Below, one piece after another: positions 38,106 to 59,166 of a DNA stretch of 64,000 nucleotides. The position numbers and the translations under genes were made by a program. Position 1 is the first letter of the stretch; each line of letters begins with the position of its first letter. This DNA is from Alphaproteobacteria bacterium (GTDB taxonomy: Bacteria; Pseudomonadota; Alphaproteobacteria; CAAHEQ01; UBA3637), in NCBI GenBank assembly GCA_017539265.1, contig JAFYHG010000018.1, forward strand, positions 8,779 to 72,778, given 5' to 3'. The notes under the pieces are model-generated. The model ran no database searches, was not told the DNA's origin, and worked only from the letters and a program-made list of their open reading frames with translations.

Positions 38106-38714
38106 TTTAATATCCTTTCTTTTTCCGGTTAAACCTCAGTGGGGCAGAGCATCAATGAACCTTCATCGACACCGGAAGCGTTGTTTTCTCGGGAACTCCC
38201 CGAAATAAGCGCTTTCCCCACATGTGAATTTTGCCGTTTTTGTAAACGACGGTTGCTCTTATACACTATTTTTCCCCAAAAGTCAAGCATTATTTACACC
38301 TAACTCCAACCTTTTTCCATACGTAAAGTTTTCTGTTTTAGGCGCTAAAAAAGCCCCGTCAAAAGGGGCTTTATTACAAACTGGCGCGCCCGGCAGGAGC
38401 TTGGGGGGAAAGCAAAATAACCCACTGGATCAGTTGAAAAATTTTCAGGCAATATTTGAGGGTTTTCAGAAAGTGTCCAGGGGATGACAAGGGGTGATAG
38501 ATGAACAAATTTCTTGATGTATTTCAAGGGTAATTTCATATAAGGATAAAACTGTATTTTTGACACCTGTCTTATAAAAACAAGTTGGGCAAAAGGGCAT
38601 TTGTCAAAGATACATCAAAAGACGTCTTGTGGTAATGGCTTGCACCTCTTTATAAAACCTTTTCCAATACATCTTATTTTTTAAACGCTCTAAAAAACAT
38701 TATATTGTGATATG

Positions 38715-39563
38715 TTAGTCAGCATCATAGGTCCATTGACCATTTCTTAATTCAAATTTATCTAGATTAAATTTGACAGTACAATTTCCTTCAGGATCAC
38801 AACCGCCTGATATATTATTAAGATTCTTGATTTTTATATCTGTTATTATCGGAAAACGGTAGTAAAATACTTTTATTTTAAATGTAACCAGACCGGTCTC
38901 ATCTCCTAACATATTCTCAATGTAATCTAACGCCTTATCTTTTGGAAGATTTAGTTTGAAAATATCATATCTTTTTGCTTTATCCAATTTGATGTTAATG
39001 GCAACCGAGGAAGCATAATTTAGTATTGTATCTGCTAGATAATTCGCCCATAATCTATTATACTGATTTTCAAATAGCGTTTTAATCTCTTTTAAATCCT
39101 GATTCTCTTTTTTAAACTGGTACAAAGAAAGCAAAGTGTTCAGATTTTTTATCAATGGTTCTCCTTTACTAAAAATTTTAACTAATTCTTCCGTACTTTC
39201 AAAAGGATAATCTTTCTTTTCTAGAGAAAAACGGTGCAAGGCTGATTCAATGGCGGCATAATAGAGAACATGGTTCAATACCGTATTTACACAAGATTGA
39301 TACCTTTTCCCCTTTGTGAGGCATTGCTCTACTCTTGTTTTGATCTTTGCAGAGTCATAAGCTTTATCTATTGCCACAAGAGTTTCTTCTACCGTATCAG
39401 CATTCATTGTACCATCAATAATTTCTTGGGTGAGTTCCAATAATTTTGTTCTAAAATTAGAAATGGATTCTATTTGTTGACTTGTCATATCAAGGGCGTA
39501 ACTTTTACTTGTCATCAATACAAAAGTAATGACCAGAGCTAAGGATATTTTTATTTTAGACAT
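38715..39563 (-). CDS. Hypothetical secreted protein
   Basis: It has a signal peptide (MSKIKISLALVITFVLMTSKSYA). Confidence 0.5.
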   Translation of the reverse strand: MSKIKISLALVITFVLMTSKSYALDMTSQQIESISNFRTKLLELTQEIIDGTMNADTVEETLVAIDKAYDSAKIKTRVEQCLTKGKRYQSCVNTVLNHVLYYAAIESALHRFSLEKKDYPFESTEELVKIFSKGEPLIKNLNTLLSLYQFKKENQDLKEIKTLFENQYNRLWANYLADTILNYASSVAINIKLDKAKRYDIFKLNLPKDKALDYIENMLGDETGLVTFKIKVFYYRFPIITDIKIKNLNNISGGCDPEGNCTVKFNLDKFELRNGQWTYDAD

Positions 39564-39566
39564 ATT

Positions 39567-41249
39567 CTAATCCTTTCCGATACAATAAGATTCTGTACCA
39601 TATTCATGTCTTTCTCTTCTTATTTTACGATTTTGGCACATATTACATTGTTCTTCTGCTCCTGTTACATTAAGCCTTGCCAGTCCAATACCATAGTCTC
39701 CTTTGGAATCACAAGAATAACAGTGTGCAAAACCATAGCTTACTTCTAAAATGGGTTTTTCTTCCGGACACGGAATCATACAATATCTTCCGATTAATTT
39801 TCGATTTGGACAAAGCTTACAGTTATTCGTTACACCCTCAAGATCTACTAAATTACTTCCATCATTGCATGCAAAACATTCACCATTTTTATCTCTTAAA
39901 GGTTTATCAGGGGGGCATGACTTTAGGATGCTGTATTTTTCAACAATTTCTCTTTCCGTTTCACAAGCATTAGAGATATTTCCATTTACTTCAATTTTTA
40001 CAGGGGCTGAACAAGCATAGCAGTTACCATCGATATCTACTTGGGGTTTATCTGTTGGACATAATACACAACTGTTCCCCGTATCTAAAACAATTCTATT
40101 AGGACAGATCTGACACACCTCTGCAGCAGCAACACGAATACGAGCAATTTCATCACATGAATGACATTCTCCAACTTCATCCCTAAGGGGTTTATCCTTT
40201 GGACATGTTAAGATACAAATATCGCTATATTTTGTGTGGACAGAATACCTGTTGGGGCACACAGAACAATTTGGTGAGTCAATAGATCTGTTTGCTTCAT
40301 TTTCATCACAAGGATGGCAACGTCCTTCCTTATCGGCCAAAGGTTTGTCCTGTGGACACGGGAGAGAACAGAGATTTCCATACATAATACGGTTTGAACA
40401 TAATTGGCATGTTTGCTCATCGGTTTTTAATTTTTCATCGGTTTCACAATCATAGCATCCTGCGTTTACTCTCATTGGCTTATCAGATGGGCAAGTTTCC
40501 AAAATACATCCATTTTTGTAATCGTATATTCTCTCAGGATATAAAGCACATTGTTGTTTTTGAAAATCTATATTTTCTCTCGCTACATAGGCCCTCAAAG
40601 ATTCTTCTTCGTTTTTAGGTTCCATAAACGTAATAGGTAAAGGATCATCAGTGGCACGACAACCACCATTGCTATCGCGAATTGGGAAGTCTTTTGGACA
40701 TTCCCCCTTTAAAAAACAAATATTCCCGTTTAGTTCACGGTTTGCACATTGTAAACAATTACTTCGTTCATAACTTTGACGGAAGCCTAAATCCAATGCA
40801 GCAGGATCATCACATGAAAAACATTTAAATTCTCTTGTTCGTTCATCAACAATCACTTTAATTGGCTTTTCTTCAGGACAACCGAATGTGCAGGTACCTG
40901 TGGCTCCATCGTTATCTTCAAAAAATTGTGTTCCGGGAATTTGGGCACATTCCCAGTCCGTAAGACCATAAGCATCTTCTCTGGAACAAGCATTATAACC
41001 ACTACCTCTTAAAGGATTGTCTGGTGGACATTCTTTCAGAATACAGTGACCATACTCATCCAATTTTCTATTTGAGCATATGCTTGAGCACTCTTGATTG
41101 TAAACCCCGCGTAGTGTATCACAGGAAAAACATTCCCTATTGTACTCCGCTAATGGTTTATCTGGTGGACAAACAATAGGTTCTTTTTCAGCCATTGCAA
41201 AAGAAGGCATCATTATTGATATAAGTAAAAATAAGGTTGTTTTTTTCAT
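39567..41249 (-). CDS. Secreted cysteine-rich repeat protein (about 10 repeats with CP.DKPL.D..G.C..CD cores)
   Basis: It has a signal peptide. The translation shows about 10 repeats of 45-55 aa with conserved Cys spacing. Confidence 0.55.
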   Translation of the reverse strand: MKKTTLFLLISIMMPSFAMAEKEPIVCPPDKPLAEYNRECFSCDTLRGVYNQECSSICSNRKLDEYGHCILKECPPDNPLRGSGYNACSREDAYGLTDWECAQIPGTQFFEDNDGATGTCTFGCPEEKPIKVIVDERTREFKCFSCDDPAALDLGFRQSYERSNCLQCANRELNGNICFLKGECPKDFPIRDSNGGCRATDDPLPITFMEPKNEEESLRAYVARENIDFQKQQCALYPERIYDYKNGCILETCPSDKPMRVNAGCYDCETDEKLKTDEQTCQLCSNRIMYGNLCSLPCPQDKPLADKEGRCHPCDENEANRSIDSPNCSVCPNRYSVHTKYSDICILTCPKDKPLRDEVGECHSCDEIARIRVAAAEVCQICPNRIVLDTGNSCVLCPTDKPQVDIDGNCYACSAPVKIEVNGNISNACETEREIVEKYSILKSCPPDKPLRDKNGECFACNDGSNLVDLEGVTNNCKLCPNRKLIGRYCMIPCPEEKPILEVSYGFAHCYSCDSKGDYGIGLARLNVTGAEEQCNMCQNRKIRRERHEYGTESYCIGKD

Positions 41250-42022
41250 TGTATAAATCCCCTGATTAACTTATCATCCCATCCTTTGTCAGGACCTGTA
41301 AAAAATCCAAACCCAGAATTAAATTGAAAAAGCTTAACTTCATCCTCAGACATATCTCTTGATTTACCAGAAAGAGCATAAACTTTTCCAGAAACTTTTT
41401 CTCCATCTTGTATTATTTCAAAAGCCTTTCCACCAGTTCTATAAAAGAGTGTTGCTGTGGCTATTTTCTTTTCTTTGTCTACTGATCCAAGATATTTTAA
41501 ATTTCCATTTTTATAATATACCTTAAATTCTCCGGCCTCATCATTTTCTGGATATTCAGCGAATTTTTCACCGCTGGCATAACGCTGTTCTTCTACGTAC
41601 TCCTTTCCATTTTTATAAGTAATACTCCATCTTTGTTCACCATTAATATGGTAATGTATTTCTTTTCCTTCTTTTTCTCCGTTTAAGTATGTTCTTAACA
41701 TTCTTGGAGTCCCATCCGGACGATATTCTTCCAAGGTACCATTGTACTTTCCATCTTTCCAATGAACAATAAAGCGTTTCGTTCCATTGGGCCAATACCA
41801 AATTTCTGTTCCGTTTTTTAGACCATTTTCATAAGGTATTTCTTTTTGAATATTCCCATTTTTAAAGGGAACTTTTACCATCCCTGTAATACTTTGATTG
41901 TTCTGATCTACTACCATATTTAAAGCTGGATCTAAACGGATATCTTTTTCCTGATAAATCGTTTCGGCATTTACAGAAGCCGAAAAGATTAAACACAATG
42001 ATAAAATAAATTTATATTTCAT
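41246..42022 (-). CDS. Secreted MORN-variant (YwqK-like) repeat protein
   Basis: It has a signal peptide and repeated G..W..Y.NG.K..G motifs. Confidence 0.5.
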   Translation of the reverse strand: MKYKFILSLCLIFSASVNAETIYQEKDIRLDPALNMVVDQNNQSITGMVKVPFKNGNIQKEIPYENGLKNGTEIWYWPNGTKRFIVHWKDGKYNGTLEEYRPDGTPRMLRTYLNGEKEGKEIHYHINGEQRWSITYKNGKEYVEEQRYASGEKFAEYPENDEAGEFKVYYKNGNLKYLGSVDKEKKIATATLFYRTGGKAFEIIQDGEKVSGKVYALSGKSRDMSEDEVKLFQFNSGFGFFTGPDKGWDDKLIRGFIQ

Positions 42023-42023
42023 A

Positions 42024-42911
42024 TTATCGAGCCCCCAAACTGATACTAAGTGCTATATCCATCAAATAATCTGTTGCTTTTTGTTCGTCTAAAATGCTTT
42101 TTTCCCCGTTCTCAGAATAAAATTCTCCAGCAATGGCCTTATCTCCTTTGATAGTCAACCGCAACATGGGTTTATTATTTTCATAGTAGACCGTATAGAT
42201 ATAATTTGCTTGTTCTTTGAATTCTTCAGGTACTGGTTCTATATAAAGATATATTCTATTATTACTCGCATAGTAAGTTTTGGTATTTGTTGTCTGATCT
42301 TCTGAGAACGAAAGATTCCCTTTATAATCATACTGTTCCCTTATAGAATTATTTTCATAGCAAGATTCTACTTTTCGTGCTGGCAATTCAGTAATTGGTA
42401 ATCCGGTTACTTTTGAAATGCGTTTCTGTGTCGGGTCAATTTTCGACCTGTATCCGGAATAAGGCCTTCCATCTCTATAATACGTACTTTTAACGCATCT
42501 GTTCATTTTGTACTCTGTTTTTTGGGAAATTTCGCCGGGATGATATTTGTCATATTCAATTACCATACCATTTAGATATCCATCCTTAAAATCATACTCT
42601 TTTTCAAGAATATCTTCTCTATCATAACACTTCATCTTCCCGTCTTTTTTACCGTTTTTTACGGAAAGTTCCATCTTATGGCAAACTGACCACGAATTTG
42701 TCCCGGGTAAAGCAAACACCCTTGTCGAAACACTTTTTAACTGATCTGACTCATTATACAATATTGTTCCTGTGATCGGGTTATAGTTCTTATCATAGAT
42801 AATATCACTTTCCCGAACATCAAGAATATCTGTTAAAGAGTAAACTGCTTGCCCAAAAGATACGGAGGGGCATAAAGCAATGAATAATCCCAATATGGCT
42901 ATTTTTTTCAT
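42024..42911 (-). CDS. Secreted repeat protein (MORN-like)
   Basis: The signal peptide begins at the internal Met (MKKIAILGLFIALCPSVSFG). The sequence is KDG/Y/N-rich and repetitive. Confidence 0.45.
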   Translation of the reverse strand: MKKIAILGLFIALCPSVSFGQAVYSLTDILDVRESDIIYDKNYNPITGTILYNESDQLKSVSTRVFALPGTNSWSVCHKMELSVKNGKKDGKMKCYDREDILEKEYDFKDGYLNGMVIEYDKYHPGEISQKTEYKMNRCVKSTYYRDGRPYSGYRSKIDPTQKRISKVTGLPITELPARKVESCYENNSIREQYDYKGNLSFSEDQTTNTKTYYASNNRIYLYIEPVPEEFKEQANYIYTVYYENNKPMLRLTIKGDKAIAGEFYSENGEKSILDEQKATDYLMDIALSISLGAR

Positions 42912-43476
42912 AACATCCCCCATAATAAAACACTTTTTGTATTGTAAACAATTTTTTTCTAAATGCAAGTGTAAAAAAACGAACATTTTTATTGTCTGCT
43001 GAACTAAATATATTACGAACGTTTTTTAATATTGTTATATAAAATGATCAAAAAGATCTACAAACCGGATATCAAAAAATGCACTAAAAGTTCACCATAA
43101 AGTTCCATAAAAATTGTCCTAAAATCAATTTAAAAATGAGGATAAGAAAAGTGTTTGTTTGTGTCCAAGGATTGTGTCCACCCCTTGTTGCCAAGCAAAA
43201 TTCCCAATTTCAGGCATAAAAAAAGCCTTGATAAACAAGGCATTATTTTAAAAGTGGCGCGCCCGGCAGGAGCTTGGTGGAAAAGTGAAATAACCCACTG
43301 GATCAATTAAAAAATTTTTGGGCGATTTTTGAGGGTTTTCAGAAAGTGCCCAGGGGATGACAAGGGGTGATGAATGGACAAACTTCTTGATGTATTTCAG
43401 GGGTAATTTTACATAAGGATAAAAGTATATTTTGGATATCTGTCATAGGAGCACAGGTTGGGCAAAAAGGCATTTA

Positions 43477-43938
43477 TCAAAGATATTTCAAAAGACGCCT
43501 TGTAATTATGGATTGCCCCTCTTCATAAAGTCTGTCAAGGTACAAGCGTTTCGTAACTCCGTCATTTAAGTCCGAAATATTCCTTATTAGATTATGGACA
43601 CAGTCTATGGAGGGTTTTCTGTGTTCACAAAGGAGCATTCCAAAATAGTACTTGTTCTTGTTCAGGAACTGTTCACTGAACTGGTACTGGCTGTCTATAT
43701 ATCCTAATTTGCGGAGGTACTTATAGCATTTAGTTATAAATTGAGCATCTTCTGTTTGGTCAGAGTAAGGGGGATTGGAGAGTTCATCTGCAACCTCTTC
43801 ATCGACATTTTTGGTGTTTTTAGGTGCGGGTGGCACAAGTTCCTCCGGTGTATTCAGATGCTTTCTGATTTTCCTCATATTTTCGGCAATATCTTCAAAA
43901 CTTACAATCATGAATAATTTCCTTTTAGTAATAGACAT
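43477..43938 (-). CDS. Hypothetical protein
   Basis: It is a 153-aa ORF at the left end of island 2. Confidence 0.35.
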   Translation of the reverse strand: MSITKRKLFMIVSFEDIAENMRKIRKHLNTPEELVPPAPKNTKNVDEEVADELSNPPYSDQTEDAQFITKCYKYLRKLGYIDSQYQFSEQFLNKNKYYFGMLLCEHRKPSIDCVHNLIRNISDLNDGVTKRLYLDRLYEEGQSIITRRLLKYL

Positions 43939-44432: not shown

Positions 44433-44865
44433 TATGAATAAAGAACAAATTAAAGAAGCAATATTAGGGAAAAAAGATTGTCATGGGGAAGAAACACCTC
44501 TCTGTCAATTTTCAACATTCCATCCGGATATGGAAATGGTGGAGATATTATTAAAAGGTGCGGATATTAATAAATCTTTTAATCACCAACCGATGGCATG
44601 GGTATTTCAATTCTGTGAACCGAATTGGGATGAAATGCTCACGCTTTTGTTCAAATACAAATACCATGCCTTACATCTGGACAGGAAAAGCGATTTTGAA
44701 AGTTTACTGCAACTTTTATCCAGAGTTAAACCGGAAACCGTGATGTATGTCTTAAAAATAATGAAGAAACATAGGTTTCGACCGACATTTGAACAGATTG
44801 ATTACATAAATAAATCAAAAGAGGATTTTAAAAAGGAGTTTAAATGGAAAGACTGGGTGAAATGA
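44395..44865 (+). CDS. Hypothetical protein
   Basis: It is a 156-aa ORF that overlaps both neighbours (translational coupling). Confidence 0.4.
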   Translation: MKTMYFSGMENINMNKEQIKEAILGKKDCHGEETPLCQFSTFHPDMEMVEILLKGADINKSFNHQPMAWVFQFCEPNWDEMLTLLFKYKYHALHLDRKSDFESLLQLLSRVKPETVMYVLKIMKKHRFRPTFEQIDYINKSKEDFKKEFKWKDWVK

Positions 44866-45317
44866 CAAAAGGTTTGTTAAAAGCAATCAATGAAAGGAAT
44901 TGGCGAGAAATTAAAAGGCTGGTTCACTTGGGCGGAAACTTAAATGCCGCTTACGATCCGTTTGGAAATACACCCTTTTTATATGCCATGCATATTTTTA
45001 AGAAAGCGGAAGAAATTGAACGCTTGATTAAATTAGGTGGAGATGTGACCTATAAAAACAGGGTGGGAAAAACAGCCTTGATGATAGCAGTTGAAAATGG
45101 GTGTGAACCGATAACGCCTTGGGTTATGGTGGATTATGGAGCGGACATTAATGCACAGGATGCATTGGGAAACACCGCCTTAATGATTTGTTTAGAATCC
45201 AGATTATATACCAAGAAACTGCTTTATGCCCTGATAGATTACGGGGCAGATTTAACCAACCTGAAGAATAAGGAAGGGAAAACAGCGTTTGATATACTAT
45301 ATGATGAATTAGAGTAA
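44844..45317 (+). CDS. Ankyrin-repeat protein
   Basis: It has at least 3 ANK repeats (GNTPFLYAMHI.., GKTALMIAVENG.., GNTALMICLE.., GKTAFDIL). Confidence 0.7.
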   Translation: MERLGEMTKGLLKAINERNWREIKRLVHLGGNLNAAYDPFGNTPFLYAMHIFKKAEEIERLIKLGGDVTYKNRVGKTALMIAVENGCEPITPWVMVDYGADINAQDALGNTALMICLESRLYTKKLLYALIDYGADLTNLKNKEGKTAFDILYDELE

Positions 45318-45336: not shown

Positions 45337-47076
45337 TTAACTAATCCGCAAATCTTTAATAGTTAATTCTTTGGTATTATTATCTTGGGGAAAATCTTTC
45401 CTGTCTTTTTCCCCAAAACCATATTCTTTTCGGCAATTTTCTAATTTGTTCCAGTCTTGCACACGATATGCATAAAGAGCAGATCGGGGATACATAATAC
45501 GCTTTCTTTGTCCAACAAAGGGGATTGATGTCTTGGTTCGTTTCTTTTTATCCGCCATCCTCTTTTTTGCTAACCAACTGATACTTTTTTCCAGATAACT
45601 TGCAGCAACTTTAGGTGACATCCATCCTGCATGAAGTGCATAACGGAGATGTGGTGATCCACTTGGTTTCCCTTTTCCTTCCAATCCCAAAGATGATATA
45701 ACGGATTGATAATTATGACTTAAAAGCATTTCCTTAAATACTTCTTTTTCTCGTTCTCTTTGGGGAGTGTTTTCATTAGTATACGCAATATTAGCGATTG
45801 TTGATTTATCACTTAAAGTGCATTCCTCAAAATCAAATCTCTTTAAGAAAGAAATATTCTCCAGAACAAGGTTACATCCCTCAAAAGAAGTCTGACTAAA
45901 GGAAACATCTCCCCCGAAAAGAGTGTTCCTTATAATAAAGTGCCGACTTCTTGGCGTTGCGTTAAACTTCAATTCTGAATTATTTAATAAAAAGGCACTA
46001 GATCTATTAAAAATACAGTTATGGATATAAAAACTTGTGTGAAATAAACTATTTCTAAAATCAAACTTACCATTTACAGTGCACTGCTCAAATGTTATAG
46101 CGTGCTTAATTTCCCTTGCGGGTGCAAAATCTTTCTCAAAGAAGCAATGATTAAAAGTGACTCTTGCTCTTATCGCATCATGGGGACAGACATAGTTAGC
46201 GGAAAATAGACAATCTTTGAAGAAAACACCTTCCATTGGATTAAATGCCCCATGAAAGCATATCAAATTCCAAAAGAATTCCTGCTCTTTTCTACCAAAT
46301 TCTACATTTTCTATTATAATAATAGAGCGACAATATTCGGAAGGAACTATTTTATATTGATGAGGTTTCTTGATTGTCTTGGTTGCCTGCGGGTGTTGTA
46401 GAAATACAATCTTATCTATTTCCTTTTTAATTTCAGGAGATTTGGTTTGTTCCGCCAGCATATAAAAAGGAGTACGGATTTCTTTCAAAAAGTCTGGATA
46501 CAAAACGGTTGGCAAGTGTTTTGTCAGTTGAACGGGTGAATTTCCAAACTTTTTGAACAGGTAAAGCAGTTCTCTTAAAAAATATCTGCCATTATTACCG
46601 ACTTTAGTTCTTATTCGTGCTAATGCTCCGACCATTCCTTTGGCATCTGCTAGGTCTTCAATATCTTGTGTTGTAATTTTGCCTCTTTTGTAATCATCTG
46701 TATCAATTTCAAAACAGGCAGAAAAGATATCTTGGAAGGTACGGATACATAACCTTAATGTTTGGTCAACACCTATTGGGTAATAATCGGGATGCGTAAA
46801 TGCATCAGGATATCCCTTCTCTGGTTGTTTTGTTTTAATGTATGTTTGTAAAATGTTTGGATAGACATCCGTCCAAAAATCTAAATTCAAAGATTTGAAC
46901 CGACCTTCTGGTCCATAGACCAGTTCTTCTTGGTAATCTTCATCTAAAAAAAAGTTTGGGCGTTCCAGTTTCATAAAAAACTCATATAAGTTGAAAAAGT
47001 TGGGGGGATTATACCACAAAATCTCCCAAAAGTCCAGAAGAACAAGAAATGTTAAAAAATCCATCTTTTTTAACAT
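45337..47076 (-). CDS. Pentapeptide-repeat-containing protein (candidate effector)
   Basis: The C-terminal half is rich in (F/L/C)-x-x-x-F/N pentapeptide-like units (FNHCFFEKDFAPA..FEGCNLVLENISF). The N-terminus and start are uncertain. Confidence 0.5.
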   Translation of the reverse strand: MLKKMDFLTFLVLLDFWEILWYNPPNFFNLYEFFMKLERPNFFLDEDYQEELVYGPEGRFKSLNLDFWTDVYPNILQTYIKTKQPEKGYPDAFTHPDYYPIGVDQTLRLCIRTFQDIFSACFEIDTDDYKRGKITTQDIEDLADAKGMVGALARIRTKVGNNGRYFLRELLYLFKKFGNSPVQLTKHLPTVLYPDFLKEIRTPFYMLAEQTKSPEIKKEIDKIVFLQHPQATKTIKKPHQYKIVPSEYCRSIIIIENVEFGRKEQEFFWNLICFHGAFNPMEGVFFKDCLFSANYVCPHDAIRARVTFNHCFFEKDFAPAREIKHAITFEQCTVNGKFDFRNSLFHTSFYIHNCIFNRSSAFLLNNSELKFNATPRSRHFIIRNTLFGGDVSFSQTSFEGCNLVLENISFLKRFDFEECTLSDKSTIANIAYTNENTPQREREKEVFKEMLLSHNYQSVISSLGLEGKGKPSGSPHLRYALHAGWMSPKVAASYLEKSISWLAKKRMADKKKRTKTSIPFVGQRKRIMYPRSALYAYRVQDWNKLENCRKEYGFGEKDRKDFPQDNNTKELTIKDLRIS

Positions 47077-47185: not shown

Positions 47186-47214
47186 TTGGCTTTTCAAAAA
47201 ATCGGCTGTATGCT
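47186..47214 (+). promoter_or_regulatory. Second copy of the promoter cassette (TTGGCT-17-TATGCT)
   Basis: It lies inside the 5' extension of track ORF 47186-47839, which argues for the later start. Confidence 0.45.
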
Positions 47215-47257
47215 CCCGGGCCGCAATAAAAGTTCAATTTTAACGAAAGGATACAAA

Positions 47258-47839
47258 ATGGTTAATCAAGTTTTTATTGACGACAAGAAAATTAAAGACA
47301 TCTTAACTTACATTCAGGGGATGAGACATGCTGAAATGATACGGATGATGTTTTTATGTTCACTGAATGGCATGAGGTCTATAAATTTCGCCTATCTCCA
47401 AGTAGGTGATGTTTATACTCCCGACTTTAAGGTTAAGGATGTCATTTGTTTGGATGCGGATAAAAATAAAGGAAAGTTCGGGTGTTCGTATTATCTTAAC
47501 AGCCAAATGAAGAAAGAGTTTAAGGAGTATTTAGGGTATTTGAAGGCTAAAAATGAAGAGATTACGCCAGAAATGTATTTGTTTACCTCACAAAAGATGG
47601 GAAAACCTTTCAACCGTGTGTCAATTTCACGGATGTTCGCAACCGTTTACAAAAAGTTCAACATTGAAGGAGCATCACACTTGGGGCGACATTTGTTCGT
47701 GAGTCGGCTTATCAATGCTGGAACTAATATCTGTTTGGTTCAGAAACTCGCCAACCATCGCAACATTGGCACAACCCAACGTTATTTTAATTATAACGAG
47801 AAAATGCTCTCAAATGCTGTGGAAAATGTAGTTTTATAG
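47258..47839 (+). CDS. FimB/FimE-like small tyrosine site-specific recombinase
   Basis: The 193-aa catalytic-domain-only architecture matches FimB/FimE. It aligns block-by-block with E. coli FimB/FimE (..LGRHLFVSRL.., ..LANHRNIGTTQRY). The start is set at ATG 47258 after the RBS GAAAGGATACAAA. Confidence 0.7.
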   Translation: MVNQVFIDDKKIKDILTYIQGMRHAEMIRMMFLCSLNGMRSINFAYLQVGDVYTPDFKVKDVICLDADKNKGKFGCSYYLNSQMKKEFKEYLGYLKAKNEEITPEMYLFTSQKMGKPFNRVSISRMFATVYKKFNIEGASHLGRHLFVSRLINAGTNICLVQKLANHRNIGTTQRYFNYNEKMLSNAVENVVL

Positions 47840-48161: not shown

Positions 48162-49130
48162 TTATGGTGTTTTTTGTAATTTCTTAAATTGGTAAAATAC
48201 AGATGCCGGCGAAACACCGAAATAGTCGCCAATTTGTCTAAAACTCATTCCAGCTGTTTTCATTCGTACCAATTGTTTGCTATCCACTTTAAAGTCTTCC
48301 CAGCCTTTATTTTTAACTAAATCAAATTTTTTTATAACCCTGTAGATACTCGCTGGATGGGCATTTACCTTTTTTGCAATTTCTTTTCCCGAAACACCAG
48401 AAAAATACAATTTTTTTATAAGTTCTTCCTGCTTTCCCAACCGACTATTCAATTTAATTTGATCAGGTGTCCGGGTTAATCCCATTTTTTTAATTTCTTG
48501 TTCAAGAAGTTTATGAGAGCATCCTAATTTTTCTGCTATAAAGGAAATGGATCTTCCTTCAGCAAACATCTCTTTTATCTTATCCTTTTTAAGGTCTAAT
48601 TTCTTCAGTTTAGGTGCTTCTAAATTATGTAAAAGAATGAAATTATACAATGTTGAATAGCAAACATTATATTTTTGTGCAATGGCTTTTCTAGAGACAC
48701 CTTTTAATAATAGGTCTTGTATATCATCTTTATAGTGGTCTATTCTGGTCCAGTTATGGCGAGGTTCTGGTTTTAACCCCAATAATCTTTGTTCTTCTAA
48801 TGTTTTTTTGCCTTTTTTATAGACCTGTATACGATCAAGTGATGCGACATAAATACCGCTTTCTTTTTCAAATTTTATGAGTGTTCTGCGGCATATTTTC
48901 AATTTTTTACAGATATCTTCACGCGTTAGCCCTAATTTATAAAAATGTTTTATTTTTTCGGGATTAAGTTTTATTTCCCGAGTATGTGGTTCTCTTTTCC
49001 ACCCTAAATCTTTTAGATAATTACGAAGGGTAGAAAGACTTATATTCATACGATCCGCTATCCCGCCCAAGGAAAGGTCAGATTTGTAGAGTTCTTTTAA
49101 TTTGTCTATATCTAGTTCAATTTTGTTCAT
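48162..49130 (-). CDS. Protein made of six tandem Hin/resolvase-type HTH (HTH_7-like) domains
   Basis: The translation shows six units of about 50 aa, each with a G(V/M/R)S...IA...(V/C)S..T(L/V)Y..(L/I)KK(L/F) pattern. Confidence 0.55.
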   Translation of the reverse strand: MNKIELDIDKLKELYKSDLSLGGIADRMNISLSTLRNYLKDLGWKREPHTREIKLNPEKIKHFYKLGLTREDICKKLKICRRTLIKFEKESGIYVASLDRIQVYKKGKKTLEEQRLLGLKPEPRHNWTRIDHYKDDIQDLLLKGVSRKAIAQKYNVCYSTLYNFILLHNLEAPKLKKLDLKKDKIKEMFAEGRSISFIAEKLGCSHKLLEQEIKKMGLTRTPDQIKLNSRLGKQEELIKKLYFSGVSGKEIAKKVNAHPASIYRVIKKFDLVKNKGWEDFKVDSKQLVRMKTAGMSFRQIGDYFGVSPASVFYQFKKLQKTP

Positions 49131-53005: not shown

Positions 53006-53617
53006 ATGGCAACTATCGCATATATCAGGGTTAGCAGCGATAAACAAACCTGTTCTAACCAACACTTTACGATTAAAGAATACACAAAATCTCACAATAT
53101 CCACATTGATAAATGGGTTGAAGAGACTATTTCCAGCAAGAAACCTTTGGAAAAGCGGGAATTAGGCGTATTATTAAATAAAATGGATAAAGGCAGTTTA
53201 TTAATTGTAACGGAAATCAGCCGTCTTGCCCGTAATCTATACGAATTGGCGGGCATATTGCAAAATGCTATTAAGAACGACATTACTGTTATTAGTATCA
53301 AGGAAAACTATCAGTTCAAAAATGATATCCAGTCCAAAATTATGGCATATACTTTTGGGCTTGCCGCAGAAATTGAGCGTGATTTGATCTCAACCCGCAC
53401 TAAAATGTCATTGGATAAATTAAAAAAGCAAAATGTTAAATTAGGCAGACCATTCGGGGCGGAGACAAAATGTTTAAAACTATCCAAAAACCGCAAGAAA
53501 ATAAGGGAATTATTAGGAAAAGGTGTCAGTCAGGCCAAAATATCCAAAATCCTTGGCGTCCACCCGACAACCATGTGCCGGTTCTTGAAACGAGTGGATG
53601 TGTCAACCTGTTCCTGA
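53006..53617 (+). CDS. Serine recombinase (resolvase/invertase family, Hin/Gin-like)
   Basis: It has an N-terminal catalytic motif (IAYIRVSSDKQ), a small resolvase-type catalytic domain and a C-terminal HTH (GVSQAKISKILGVHPTTMCRFLKR). Confidence 0.8.
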   Translation: MATIAYIRVSSDKQTCSNQHFTIKEYTKSHNIHIDKWVEETISSKKPLEKRELGVLLNKMDKGSLLIVTEISRLARNLYELAGILQNAIKNDITVISIKENYQFKNDIQSKIMAYTFGLAAEIERDLISTRTKMSLDKLKKQNVKLGRPFGAETKCLKLSKNRKKIRELLGKGVSQAKISKILGVHPTTMCRFLKRVDVSTCS

Positions 53618-59089: not shown

Positions 59090-59166
59090 TGGCGCGCCCG
59101 GCAGGATTCGAACTTACAACCTTCTGATCCGTAGTCAGATGCTCTATCCAATTGAGCTACGGGCGC
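59090..59166 (-). tRNA. tRNA-Arg (anticodon ACG)
   Basis: A 77-nt cloverleaf was folded by hand: acceptor GCGCCCG/CGGGCGC, D-arm GCTC..GAGC, anticodon stem TCTGA/TCAGA with loop CTACGGA, T-loop TTCGAAT, and a CCA encoded. The T-stem has one A-C mismatch. Confidence 0.8.

Follow-up and report, generated by a model that had tools for sequence, protein, structure and literature searches.

An exported protein encoded in the window, a 64,000-nucleotide stretch of the alphaproteobacterial contig JAFYHG010000018.1 (assembly GCA_017539265.1), is built from ten tandem copies of a cysteine-rich module for which the libraries searched (Pfam, NCBIfam, PADLOC and PDB) hold no entry. Disulfide-rich tandem modules in exported proteins are of a familiar kind; this module itself is uncatalogued. 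On balance, and with modest conviction, we favour the reading that the module founds a new disulfide-rich family whose members form rigid exported rods with a surface or adhesive role. Our confidence is higher for the structural part of this reading and lower for the role as an adhesin.

The gene for the Cys-rich protein occupies positions 39567..41249 on the minus strand (open reading frame (ORF) listing of the window), starts with ATG and encodes 560 amino acids (aa). Its product is identical to NCBI MBR6412225.1 (locus tag IKS41_03575), from an Alphaproteobacteria metagenome-assembled genome (MAG). The translation begins with MKKTTLFLLISIMMPSFAMA followed by EKEP, in which a charged n region, a hydrophobic h region and a c region with an AxA site give a Sec layout. 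This signal peptide, assigned by eye from the translation, agrees with the one proposed in the initial annotation, and together with the N-termini of the relatives described below it is good evidence for export across the inner membrane. The product contains 54 cysteines (9.6%), none of them within residues 1–26; the number is even and all lie in the mature protein, which we count as support for disulfides.

A hidden Markov model (HMM), built first from five repeats of this protein and then refined in rounds on its homologs, converged on the 48-residue consensus CPKDKPLRDKDGKCYSCDDPEAVDVGGNEEECSVCPNRRLKGGYCVLK, summarized as CPxDKPLxDxxGxCYxCD-x13-18-CxxCPNR-x6-10-CxLK. With this model ten tandem modules were detected, at per-module E values from 8e-4 to 5e-19, and they account for almost the whole of the 540 mature residues (Table 1). 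The initial annotation had described about ten repeats with fixed cysteine spacing and an invariant core. The number of repeats stands, but the spacing is less regular: seven of the ten modules have six cysteines, modules 2, 4 and 8 are degenerate and have four, and insertions lengthen modules 3, 4 and 10 to 58–68 aa. The core is conserved rather than invariant, with exact CPxDKP in only six modules and the variants CPPDNP, CPEEKP (twice) and CPKDFP in the remainder. The three repeats that had been quoted as examples, and the C..C.NR...G.C.L pattern said to precede them, are both present. A degenerate DNA motif of the module matched the window three times versus no match in 100 shuffles, and the repeat was found in no other ORF of the window. 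Tandem Repeats Finder detected no DNA-level repeat in the gene and 50-nucleotide (nt) copies within it are only 60–72% identical, indicating that the module copies are ancient.

The module family is a lineage-specific, multi-copy expansion in uncultured gut Alphaproteobacteria. A word-indexed protein search returned only 32 relatives, in which no Pfam domain covers the repeat, and an exhaustive HMMER search of 1.84 billion cluster representatives with a 76-repeat profile returned 670 proteins at E<=1e-3 (408 at E<=1e-10) that contain from 2 to 32 repeats each. A search for the CPxDKPL-type motif in other genomes had been suggested at the outset; scanning one genome for each of 185,579 species with the degenerate DNA motif yielded 72 loci, 60 of them labelled Alphaproteobacteria, 4 proteobacteria and 1 Rickettsiales. 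Nearly all of these 65 come from gut MAGs (ruminant gastrointestinal tract, human gut and others), and the richest genomes hold at least 3–6 separate family loci each, the counts being lower bounds because the scan needs an exact motif match. The other seven loci (L017, L043, L054, L059, L063, L066 and L074, three of them in one Lactobacillales MAG) carry the labels Bacteroidaceae, Lactobacillales, Lachnospiraceae, Cytophagales or Eubacteriales, and could be mis-binned or mislabelled contigs or reflect horizontal transfer. The scan of viral contigs for the motif gave no match and thus no sign of a phage tail-fibre origin, while the metagenome scan gave 21 contigs, which lack usable environment labels.

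Across 770 repeats the six cysteines are conserved at 99–100%, followed by R38 (95%), P6 (91%), G12 (83%), L48 (76%), P2 (74%) and N37 (72%), with D4, K5 and D9 each just above 50%. The stretch from C3 to C5 spans 13 to 25 residues and shows almost no sequence conservation, and with this variability in both length and sequence it is the part of the module most obviously suited to be a variable, exposed surface.

The pattern of cysteine loss within the family suggests how the six residues pair. On the HMM alignment of 838 family repeats, from which repeats at protein ends were excluded, 640 keep all six cysteines. C4 and C6 are lost together in 46 repeats, including module 8 of the Cys-rich protein, and many of these keep xCPNR while the CxL end becomes SxL. 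C3 and C5 are lost together in 3 repeats and, in the lineage of the Cys-rich protein, also in modules 2 and 4; C1 and C2 are lost together in 3 repeats. Loss of a single cysteine was seen at most twice for each position, edge effects at C1 and C6 aside; the apparent lone losses of C1 (85) and C6 (54) proved, in the examples inspected, to be alignment-edge effects of variant spacing. The simplest reading of these paired losses is that each module would contain three intramodule disulfides, C1–C2, C3–C5 and C4–C6. Together with the export signals, they lend indirect support to the earlier description of the module as disulfide-stabilized. A connectivity of 1-2, 3-5, 4-6 is also canonical for the A1-B2 domain of TNFR.

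Searches of catalogued families and solved structures did not place the module. The Cys-rich protein gave no match at E<=1 in Pfam, no family at E<=1 in NCBIfam (in which we take the Myxococcus Cys-repeat model TIGR02232 to be included) and no match in PADLOC, and no Pfam family covered the repeat when 8 large and 70 extended relatives were scanned. When the PDB was searched by sequence, the protein and the 76-repeat profile alike gave only chance CxxC matches at E>0.1, to RSV F and cytochromes c. We rejected heme binding as well, since the motifs read CxxCD and CxxCPNR and not CxxCH. AlphaFold2 gave confident models both of modules 5–7 (aa 253–396; pLDDT 92.5, pTM 0.74, from an alignment of 43 non-overlapping triple-repeat sequences) and of module 9 alone (pLDDT 94), in which the predicted fold consists of short beta-hairpins and one short helix around C4-x2-C5. 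For neither model did Foldseek find a match at E<=0.001 among 350,542 PDB chains; the top matches of the three-module model, none of them significant, were CD40 (E=0.22, TM 0.21), meckelin and the EGF domains of factor Xa, the list also including ErbB receptors, R-spondin Fu1-Fu2 and the insulin receptor, and the single-module model gave random matches only. In hhalign, the triple-repeat profile aligned with the TNFR1 ectodomain at a probability of 0.8% and with EGFR domain IV at 0.4%, both template sequences having been entered by hand. Literature searches turned up no description of the module. The structure prediction that had been recommended yielded a confident repeat model with no significant structural match, and the earlier failure to assign the pattern to any known Cys-repeat family is supported by the Pfam, NCBIfam and PDB searches and by the hhalign probabilities below 1%.

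By its cysteine register and the insignificant Foldseek list, the modelled module nonetheless resembles the eukaryotic extracellular Cys-rich class. In the best-surviving alternative to a new family it would be a bacterial representative, much diverged, of the eukaryote-type TNFR, furin-like or ephrin-receptor-like superfamily, either ancient or acquired from a host, and would mimic or bind host ligands. We consider this unlikely. The predicted 1-2, 3-5, 4-6 pairing is the TNFR A1-B2 pattern, paralogs exist with TNFR- or ephrin-receptor-like CPxGxF...GxCxxC starts, CD40, meckelin, ErbB, R-spondin Fu1-Fu2 and the insulin receptor are among the top, though insignificant, structural matches, and two relatives carry modules that match such families: P0074 (1128 aa) combines CPxDKP-type repeats with EGF_Teneurin (at the Pfam cut-off) and TNFR_ELAPOR1 (below the cut-off) modules, and P0116 (1897 aa) has a sub-threshold Ephrin_rec_like match. 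However, the query itself has no Pfam match to this superfamily at E<=1, the Foldseek and hhalign values are those given above, C3 and C4 are separated by 13–18 residues here versus 2 in TNFR, and the family, nearly all of it bacterial, is confined to one lineage. None of the searches placed the module in the TNFR or furin-like families. P0074 and P0116 are large mosaic Cys-rich ectodomains, and another relative, P0038, has a VIT domain besides its Cys-rich repeats.

The cysteines could instead bind metal, with C2-x2-C3 and C4-x2-C5 forming a four-cysteine site for zinc or iron, like those of zinc ribbons, treble clefs or rubredoxins, in a periplasmic metal store, a redox protein or a metal-stabilized scaffold. 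The CxxC-x13-18-CxxC layout is the classic zinc-ribbon spacing, the first CxxC of the single-module model follows a beta-hairpin and the second lies in helix 30–35 as in treble-clef fingers, and one relative has a weak match to the Pfam zinc-ribbon DUF1451 (E=0.003). The pattern of loss argues against such a site: C2, C3, C4 and C5 do not disappear as a set, but C3 is lost with C5 and C4 with C6 (46 times), and C6 lies outside the putative site. Moreover, the second cysteine pair is spaced C4-x3-C5 rather than C4-x2-C5 in 223 of 587 repeats, no histidine is conserved, no zinc finger was matched in the PDB, and the family is consistently exported to a compartment in which oxidation of the DsbA type is expected. 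We therefore give metal binding little credence and return to disulfides as the preferred account of the six cysteines.

Many relatives of the Cys-rich protein appear to be exported by one of two kinds of N-terminus. Among 172 relatives, 82 begin with a signal-peptide-like sequence and 45, about a quarter, with a pilin-like one. The latter consists of a short leader and the motif G-[RK]-S-M-V-E-M-L-G-V-L-A-x-I-G-V-L-S, whose layout is that of a type IV prepilin signal (a G-x4-E pattern with Glu at +5 and a hydrophobic helix), and the N-terminal helix is followed by a region of ~160–230 residues and then by the repeats. The prepilin motif is absent from the Cys-rich protein of the window. The pilin-type genes examined lie among housekeeping genes, outside pilus operons. 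The suggestion in the initial annotation that the module could be extracellular is supported in part, in that the signal peptide and the N-termini of 127 of the 172 relatives bear out passage across the inner membrane. The putative host-facing role, also suggested there, has its only support in the confinement of the family to gut MAGs.

The Cys-rich gene is the third in a tightly packed minus-strand run of four genes (Table 1). It is preceded by a gene for an exported MORN_2 repeat protein, whose match to PF07661 (40.6 bits versus a cut-off of 29.6) lies above the gathering threshold and whose stop overlaps the start of the Cys-rich gene by 4 nt. The product of the first gene is linked to the MORN partner of loci L001 and L002 by a weak phmmer match (E=4e-6). 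The first three genes occur in the same order in three other lineages (L002, in MAG GCA_017559525.1, L077 and L078), at sites that are genomically unrelated; with its L002 counterpart the first protein shares 35% identity, the MORN_2 protein 43% and the Cys-rich protein 41%. Conservation does not extend to the fourth gene, whose product shows no similarity to the genes downstream of the cassette in L002 or L077 and has no Pfam or NCBIfam match. Homologs of the first protein in the same position in L002 and L078 are 32–35% identical, and the alignments start at around residue 26–38 of its ORF. The start contexts of the first gene (42892-42911) and the Cys-rich gene (41230-41249) are 85% identical over 20 nt (coding strand, ATGAAAAAAA...), which favours 42911 rather than 42986 as the real start of the first gene. 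A terminator-like hairpin and a promoter-like site lie at 43241-43139, upstream of the cassette; the promoter and terminator scan performed no better than on shuffles.

Fusions between the Cys repeat and MORN_2 (P0027, two members of the Pfam census and one ORF in locus L056) point to a functional link between the two proteins. Ratios of nonsynonymous to synonymous substitution rates (dN/dS) against the L077 orthologs, where the Cys-rich proteins are 81% identical, are 0.11 for the Cys-rich gene, 0.06 for the MORN_2 gene and 0.16 for the first gene. These low values indicate that the cassette is a conserved functional unit and is not rapidly diversifying.

According to the model that we favour, the Sec pathway would export a protein of ten tandem ~48-residue six-cysteine modules, each of which would fold into a small unit of beta-hairpins and a short helix stapled by three disulfides formed in the periplasm. 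Three disulfides in every module would make the chain a rigid, protease-resistant rod in an oxidizing compartment, and it is from these features that we infer the rod shape. The two exported MORN_2-like proteins would be co-made from a translationally coupled cassette and probably form one complex with the Cys-rich protein, while about a quarter of family members would carry the same rod behind an N-terminus that resembles those of type IV pilins. Most probably the protein would act as a cell-surface or extracellular stalk or adhesin, with the length-variable C3–C4 loops as binding surfaces; both the adhesive function and a location beyond the periplasm are suggested by this combination of features and by the setting of the cassette in a low-GC island with a YadA-anchor adhesin and an ankyrin-repeat protein. 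A bolder version, which we put forward tentatively and think on the whole doubtful, is that a new disulfide-rich fold arose in uncultured gut Alphaproteobacteria, converged on TNFR-like connectivity and serves as the shaft of a new class of surface fibrils, some anchored or polymerized through pilin-like N-termini and others, as here, assembled with secreted MORN_2 partners; with these fibrils the little-known and possibly partner-dependent bacteria would attach to host mucus or to other cells.

Several observations weigh against the model. The Cys-rich protein has an ordinary signal peptide and lacks a lipobox, a sorting signal or an anchor, so that it may be retained in the periplasm. No secretion or pilus genes stand beside any family member examined. 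The term pilin-like is a statement at the level of pattern, since the prepilin model TIGR02532 scored 15.1 bits on P0019 versus a cut-off of 16.3 and missed 5 other proteins, and Pfam N_methyl matched only 1 of 70 relatives, weakly (E=0.009). The disulfide pairing is a prediction from loss counts, and an odd number of cysteines was counted in 45 of the 127 relatives with recognizable N-termini, many of which are probably fragments. Finally, orthologs are held under strong purifying selection, which speaks against a rapidly evolving surface for host interaction.

The cassette lies in a low-GC island at ~38100-59170 (34–39% versus ~45% in the flanks), between rpsB and tRNA-Arg(ACG) at 59090-59166. 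This region looks like an integrated mobile island with surface and host-interaction genes: besides the cassette it contains two integrase ORFs, the longer of which adjoins the tRNA, a resolvase, an ankyrin-repeat protein and a large protein with a YadA-like membrane anchor. Several further ORFs of the island have no family match. The YadA-anchor protein of the island and a second one near the start of the window are probably trimeric autotransporter adhesins, and a 322-aa protein of the island appears to be a chain of repeated helix-turn-helix (HTH) modules. Two copies of a 296-nt direct repeat bracket the four-gene cassette and may mark its insertion; read on the minus strand, the copies lie ~250 nt upstream of rpsB and of the first cassette gene, respectively. 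Rfam detected only the rpsB leader in the cassette region, and the 296-nt repeat matched no known RNA. In another gut MAG, P0006 (L080 10001-12859), a pilin-like protein with 15 Cys-rich repeats, adjoins rpsB, and it shares with the window the conserved backbone bamA-rseP-cdsA-uppS-frr-tsf-rpsB. The site beside rpsB therefore holds different family members in different genomes, and it seems to be a recurrent slot for the Cys-repeat family.

Table 1. Coordinates of the modules of the Cys-rich protein, the genes of its cassette and other features of the window.
Feature	Coordinates	Strand	Details
Signal peptide, aa 1-20	41190..41249	-	Predicted cleavage between AMA and EK, read from the translation
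Module 1, aa 27-72	41034..41171	-	HMM E=1.3e-14, DNA motif match; six Cys, C4-x3-C5 variant
Module 2, aa 74-121	40887..41030	-	HMM E=8e-4, Cys positions; degenerate, lacks C3 and C5
Module 3, aa 124-181	40707..40880	-	HMM E=1.9e-14; six Cys, longer C1-C2 and C3-C4 loops
Module 4, aa 184-251	40497..40700	-	HMM E=2.1e-9; degenerate, lacks C3 and C5, ~20-aa insertion
Module 5, aa 253-297	40359..40493	-	HMM E=7e-15; canonical; in three-module AlphaFold model
Module 6, aa 298-348	40206..40358	-	HMM E=1.8e-15, DNA motif match; canonical; in three-module AlphaFold model
Module 7, aa 349-396	40062..40205	-	HMM E=6.5e-18, DNA motif match; canonical; in three-module AlphaFold model
Module 8, aa 397-443	39921..40061	-	HMM E=1.3e-12; degenerate, lacks C4 and C6 (CETER / YSILK); C4 and C6 co-loss class
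Module 9, aa 445-493	39771..39917	-	HMM E=4.6e-19; closest to family consensus; modelled singly
Module 10, aa 494-559	39573..39770	-	HMM E=2.2e-9; six Cys, long loops, C-terminal
First cassette gene, ~295-aa exported protein, distantly MORN-like	42024..42986	-	Likely start 42911 (M26 of ORF)
Upstream partner, 258-aa exported MORN_2 repeat protein	41246..42022	-	PF07661 E=1.4e-10
Fourth gene, 282-aa protein with signal peptide	38715..39563	-	Starts 3 nt past the stop of the Cys-rich gene
296-nt direct repeat, left copy	38361..38656	.	83-87% identical to right copy
296-nt direct repeat, right copy	43234..43529	.	Overlaps 3' end of DUF6626 ORF
rpsB leader RNA	38108-38226	-	Rfam RF01815, 46.9 bits, above gathering score; directly upstream of rpsB
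Ankyrin-repeat protein	44844-45317		In island
579-aa ORF	45337-47076	-	In island; no Pfam or PADLOC match
Integrase ORF, shorter	47186-47839		In island
322-aa protein	48162-49130	-	~30 HTH Pfam families match at several positions
YadA-like membrane anchor protein, 1163 aa	49235-52726	-	Inside island
Resolvase	53006-53617		In island
Integrase, 590 aa	57007-58779		Adjoins tRNA
YadA-like membrane anchor protein, 770 aa	105-2417	+	

This genomic setting bears on the proposal that the family forms a variable surface coat, with Giardia-like antigenic or phase variation and paralogs expressed at different times. Several paralogous loci are present per genome, the number of repeats ranges from 2 to 32, the slot beside rpsB is filled by different members in two genomes, direct repeats flank the cassette, and the island also carries resolvase and integrase genes. 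However, selection on the orthologs is strongly purifying (dN/dS 0.11), neither an invertible promoter nor an arrangement of silent cassettes was found, and the paralogs are scattered among housekeeping genes; a variable coat thus strikes us as quite improbable. Still further from likely is a precursor cleaved into single cystine-rich toxin or bacteriocin peptides, which the tandem, independently folding disulfide-rich units would resemble in the multi-domain architecture described for venom peptides (PMC6262176), but in which the modules would not be expected to abut with 3–4 residues from C6 to the next C1 and no conserved cleavage sites, to lack a protease or transporter gene in the cassette, or to be modelled by AlphaFold confidently across their junctions.

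Confidently modelled and unmatched in Pfam, NCBIfam and the PDB, the 48-aa module deserves an entry of its own as a new family. Gut communities repeatedly include uncultured Alphaproteobacteria, and the family was found in MAGs from both ruminant and human gut. One such order, Rs-D84, is described as having reduced genomes and possibly a partner-dependent lifestyle (PMC12306168). Exported rods stapled by cysteines, a quarter of them fused to pilin-like N-termini, would be a concrete candidate for the contact of gut Alphaproteobacteria with their surroundings, and, if the role proposed here is right, the family offers a handle on the cell surface of these poorly known organisms. TNFR-like pairing in a bacterial protein with no detectable homology to TNFR would be a case of convergence, or of a very deep relationship should sensitive searches reveal homology. 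The compact module could also serve as a stable scaffold.

Among known systems, the closest in organization are the A1-B2 domains of TNFR (TNFR_c6), which share with the module a length of ~40–50 residues, six cysteines with the 1-2/3-5/4-6 pairing predicted here, a tandem arrangement in what would here, too, be an elongated extracellular rod and, in some paralogs, a CPxGxF/Y...C start. They differ in that no sequence, profile or structural match connects them to the module, in C3–C4 spacing (2–3 residues versus 13–18 in the module) and in lacking the module's P6, G12, N37-R38 and L48, and the module family is bacterial and confined to one lineage. The furin-like repeats of growth factor receptors (EGFR domains II and IV, the insulin receptor Cys-rich region and the R-spondin FU repeats) have a similar tandem C-x2-C...C-x2-C...G-x-C-x3-C-P arrangement; they are among the best insignificant Foldseek matches, and hhalign aligns the cysteines of one module with those of EGFR domain IV. 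The probability of that alignment is only 0.4%, however, there is no Pfam Furin-like or GF_recep_IV match, ErbB3/4, HER2, RSPO2 and the insulin receptor appear at Foldseek E>1 and TM<=0.25, and none of them was recovered by the PDB profile search.

Three further systems bear comparison with the family. The variant-specific surface proteins (VSPs) of Giardia and the surface antigens of ciliates are CXXC-rich exported coats, present in many copies in gut dwellers. Compared by description, they agree with the family in export, a cysteine content of ~10%, the dominance of CXXC, multiple copies and life in the gut; unlike the VSPs, the family shows no evidence of switching, and the Cys-rich orthologs are under purifying selection. 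Pfam, which presumably includes a Giardia VSP model, gave the Cys-rich protein no match. The Myxococcus Cys-rich repeat (TIGR02232) is likewise a bacterial, exported, tandem Cys-rich repeat, but there was no NCBIfam or Pfam match at E<=1, assuming that TIGR02232 is present in the release searched. Type IV pilins and pseudopilins differ from the Cys-rich protein, which has an ordinary signal peptide, and no pilus-assembly genes adjoin the family loci examined; they are nevertheless resembled by the 45 of 172 family members in which a class III signal layout is followed by a globular region and a putative Cys-rich rod.

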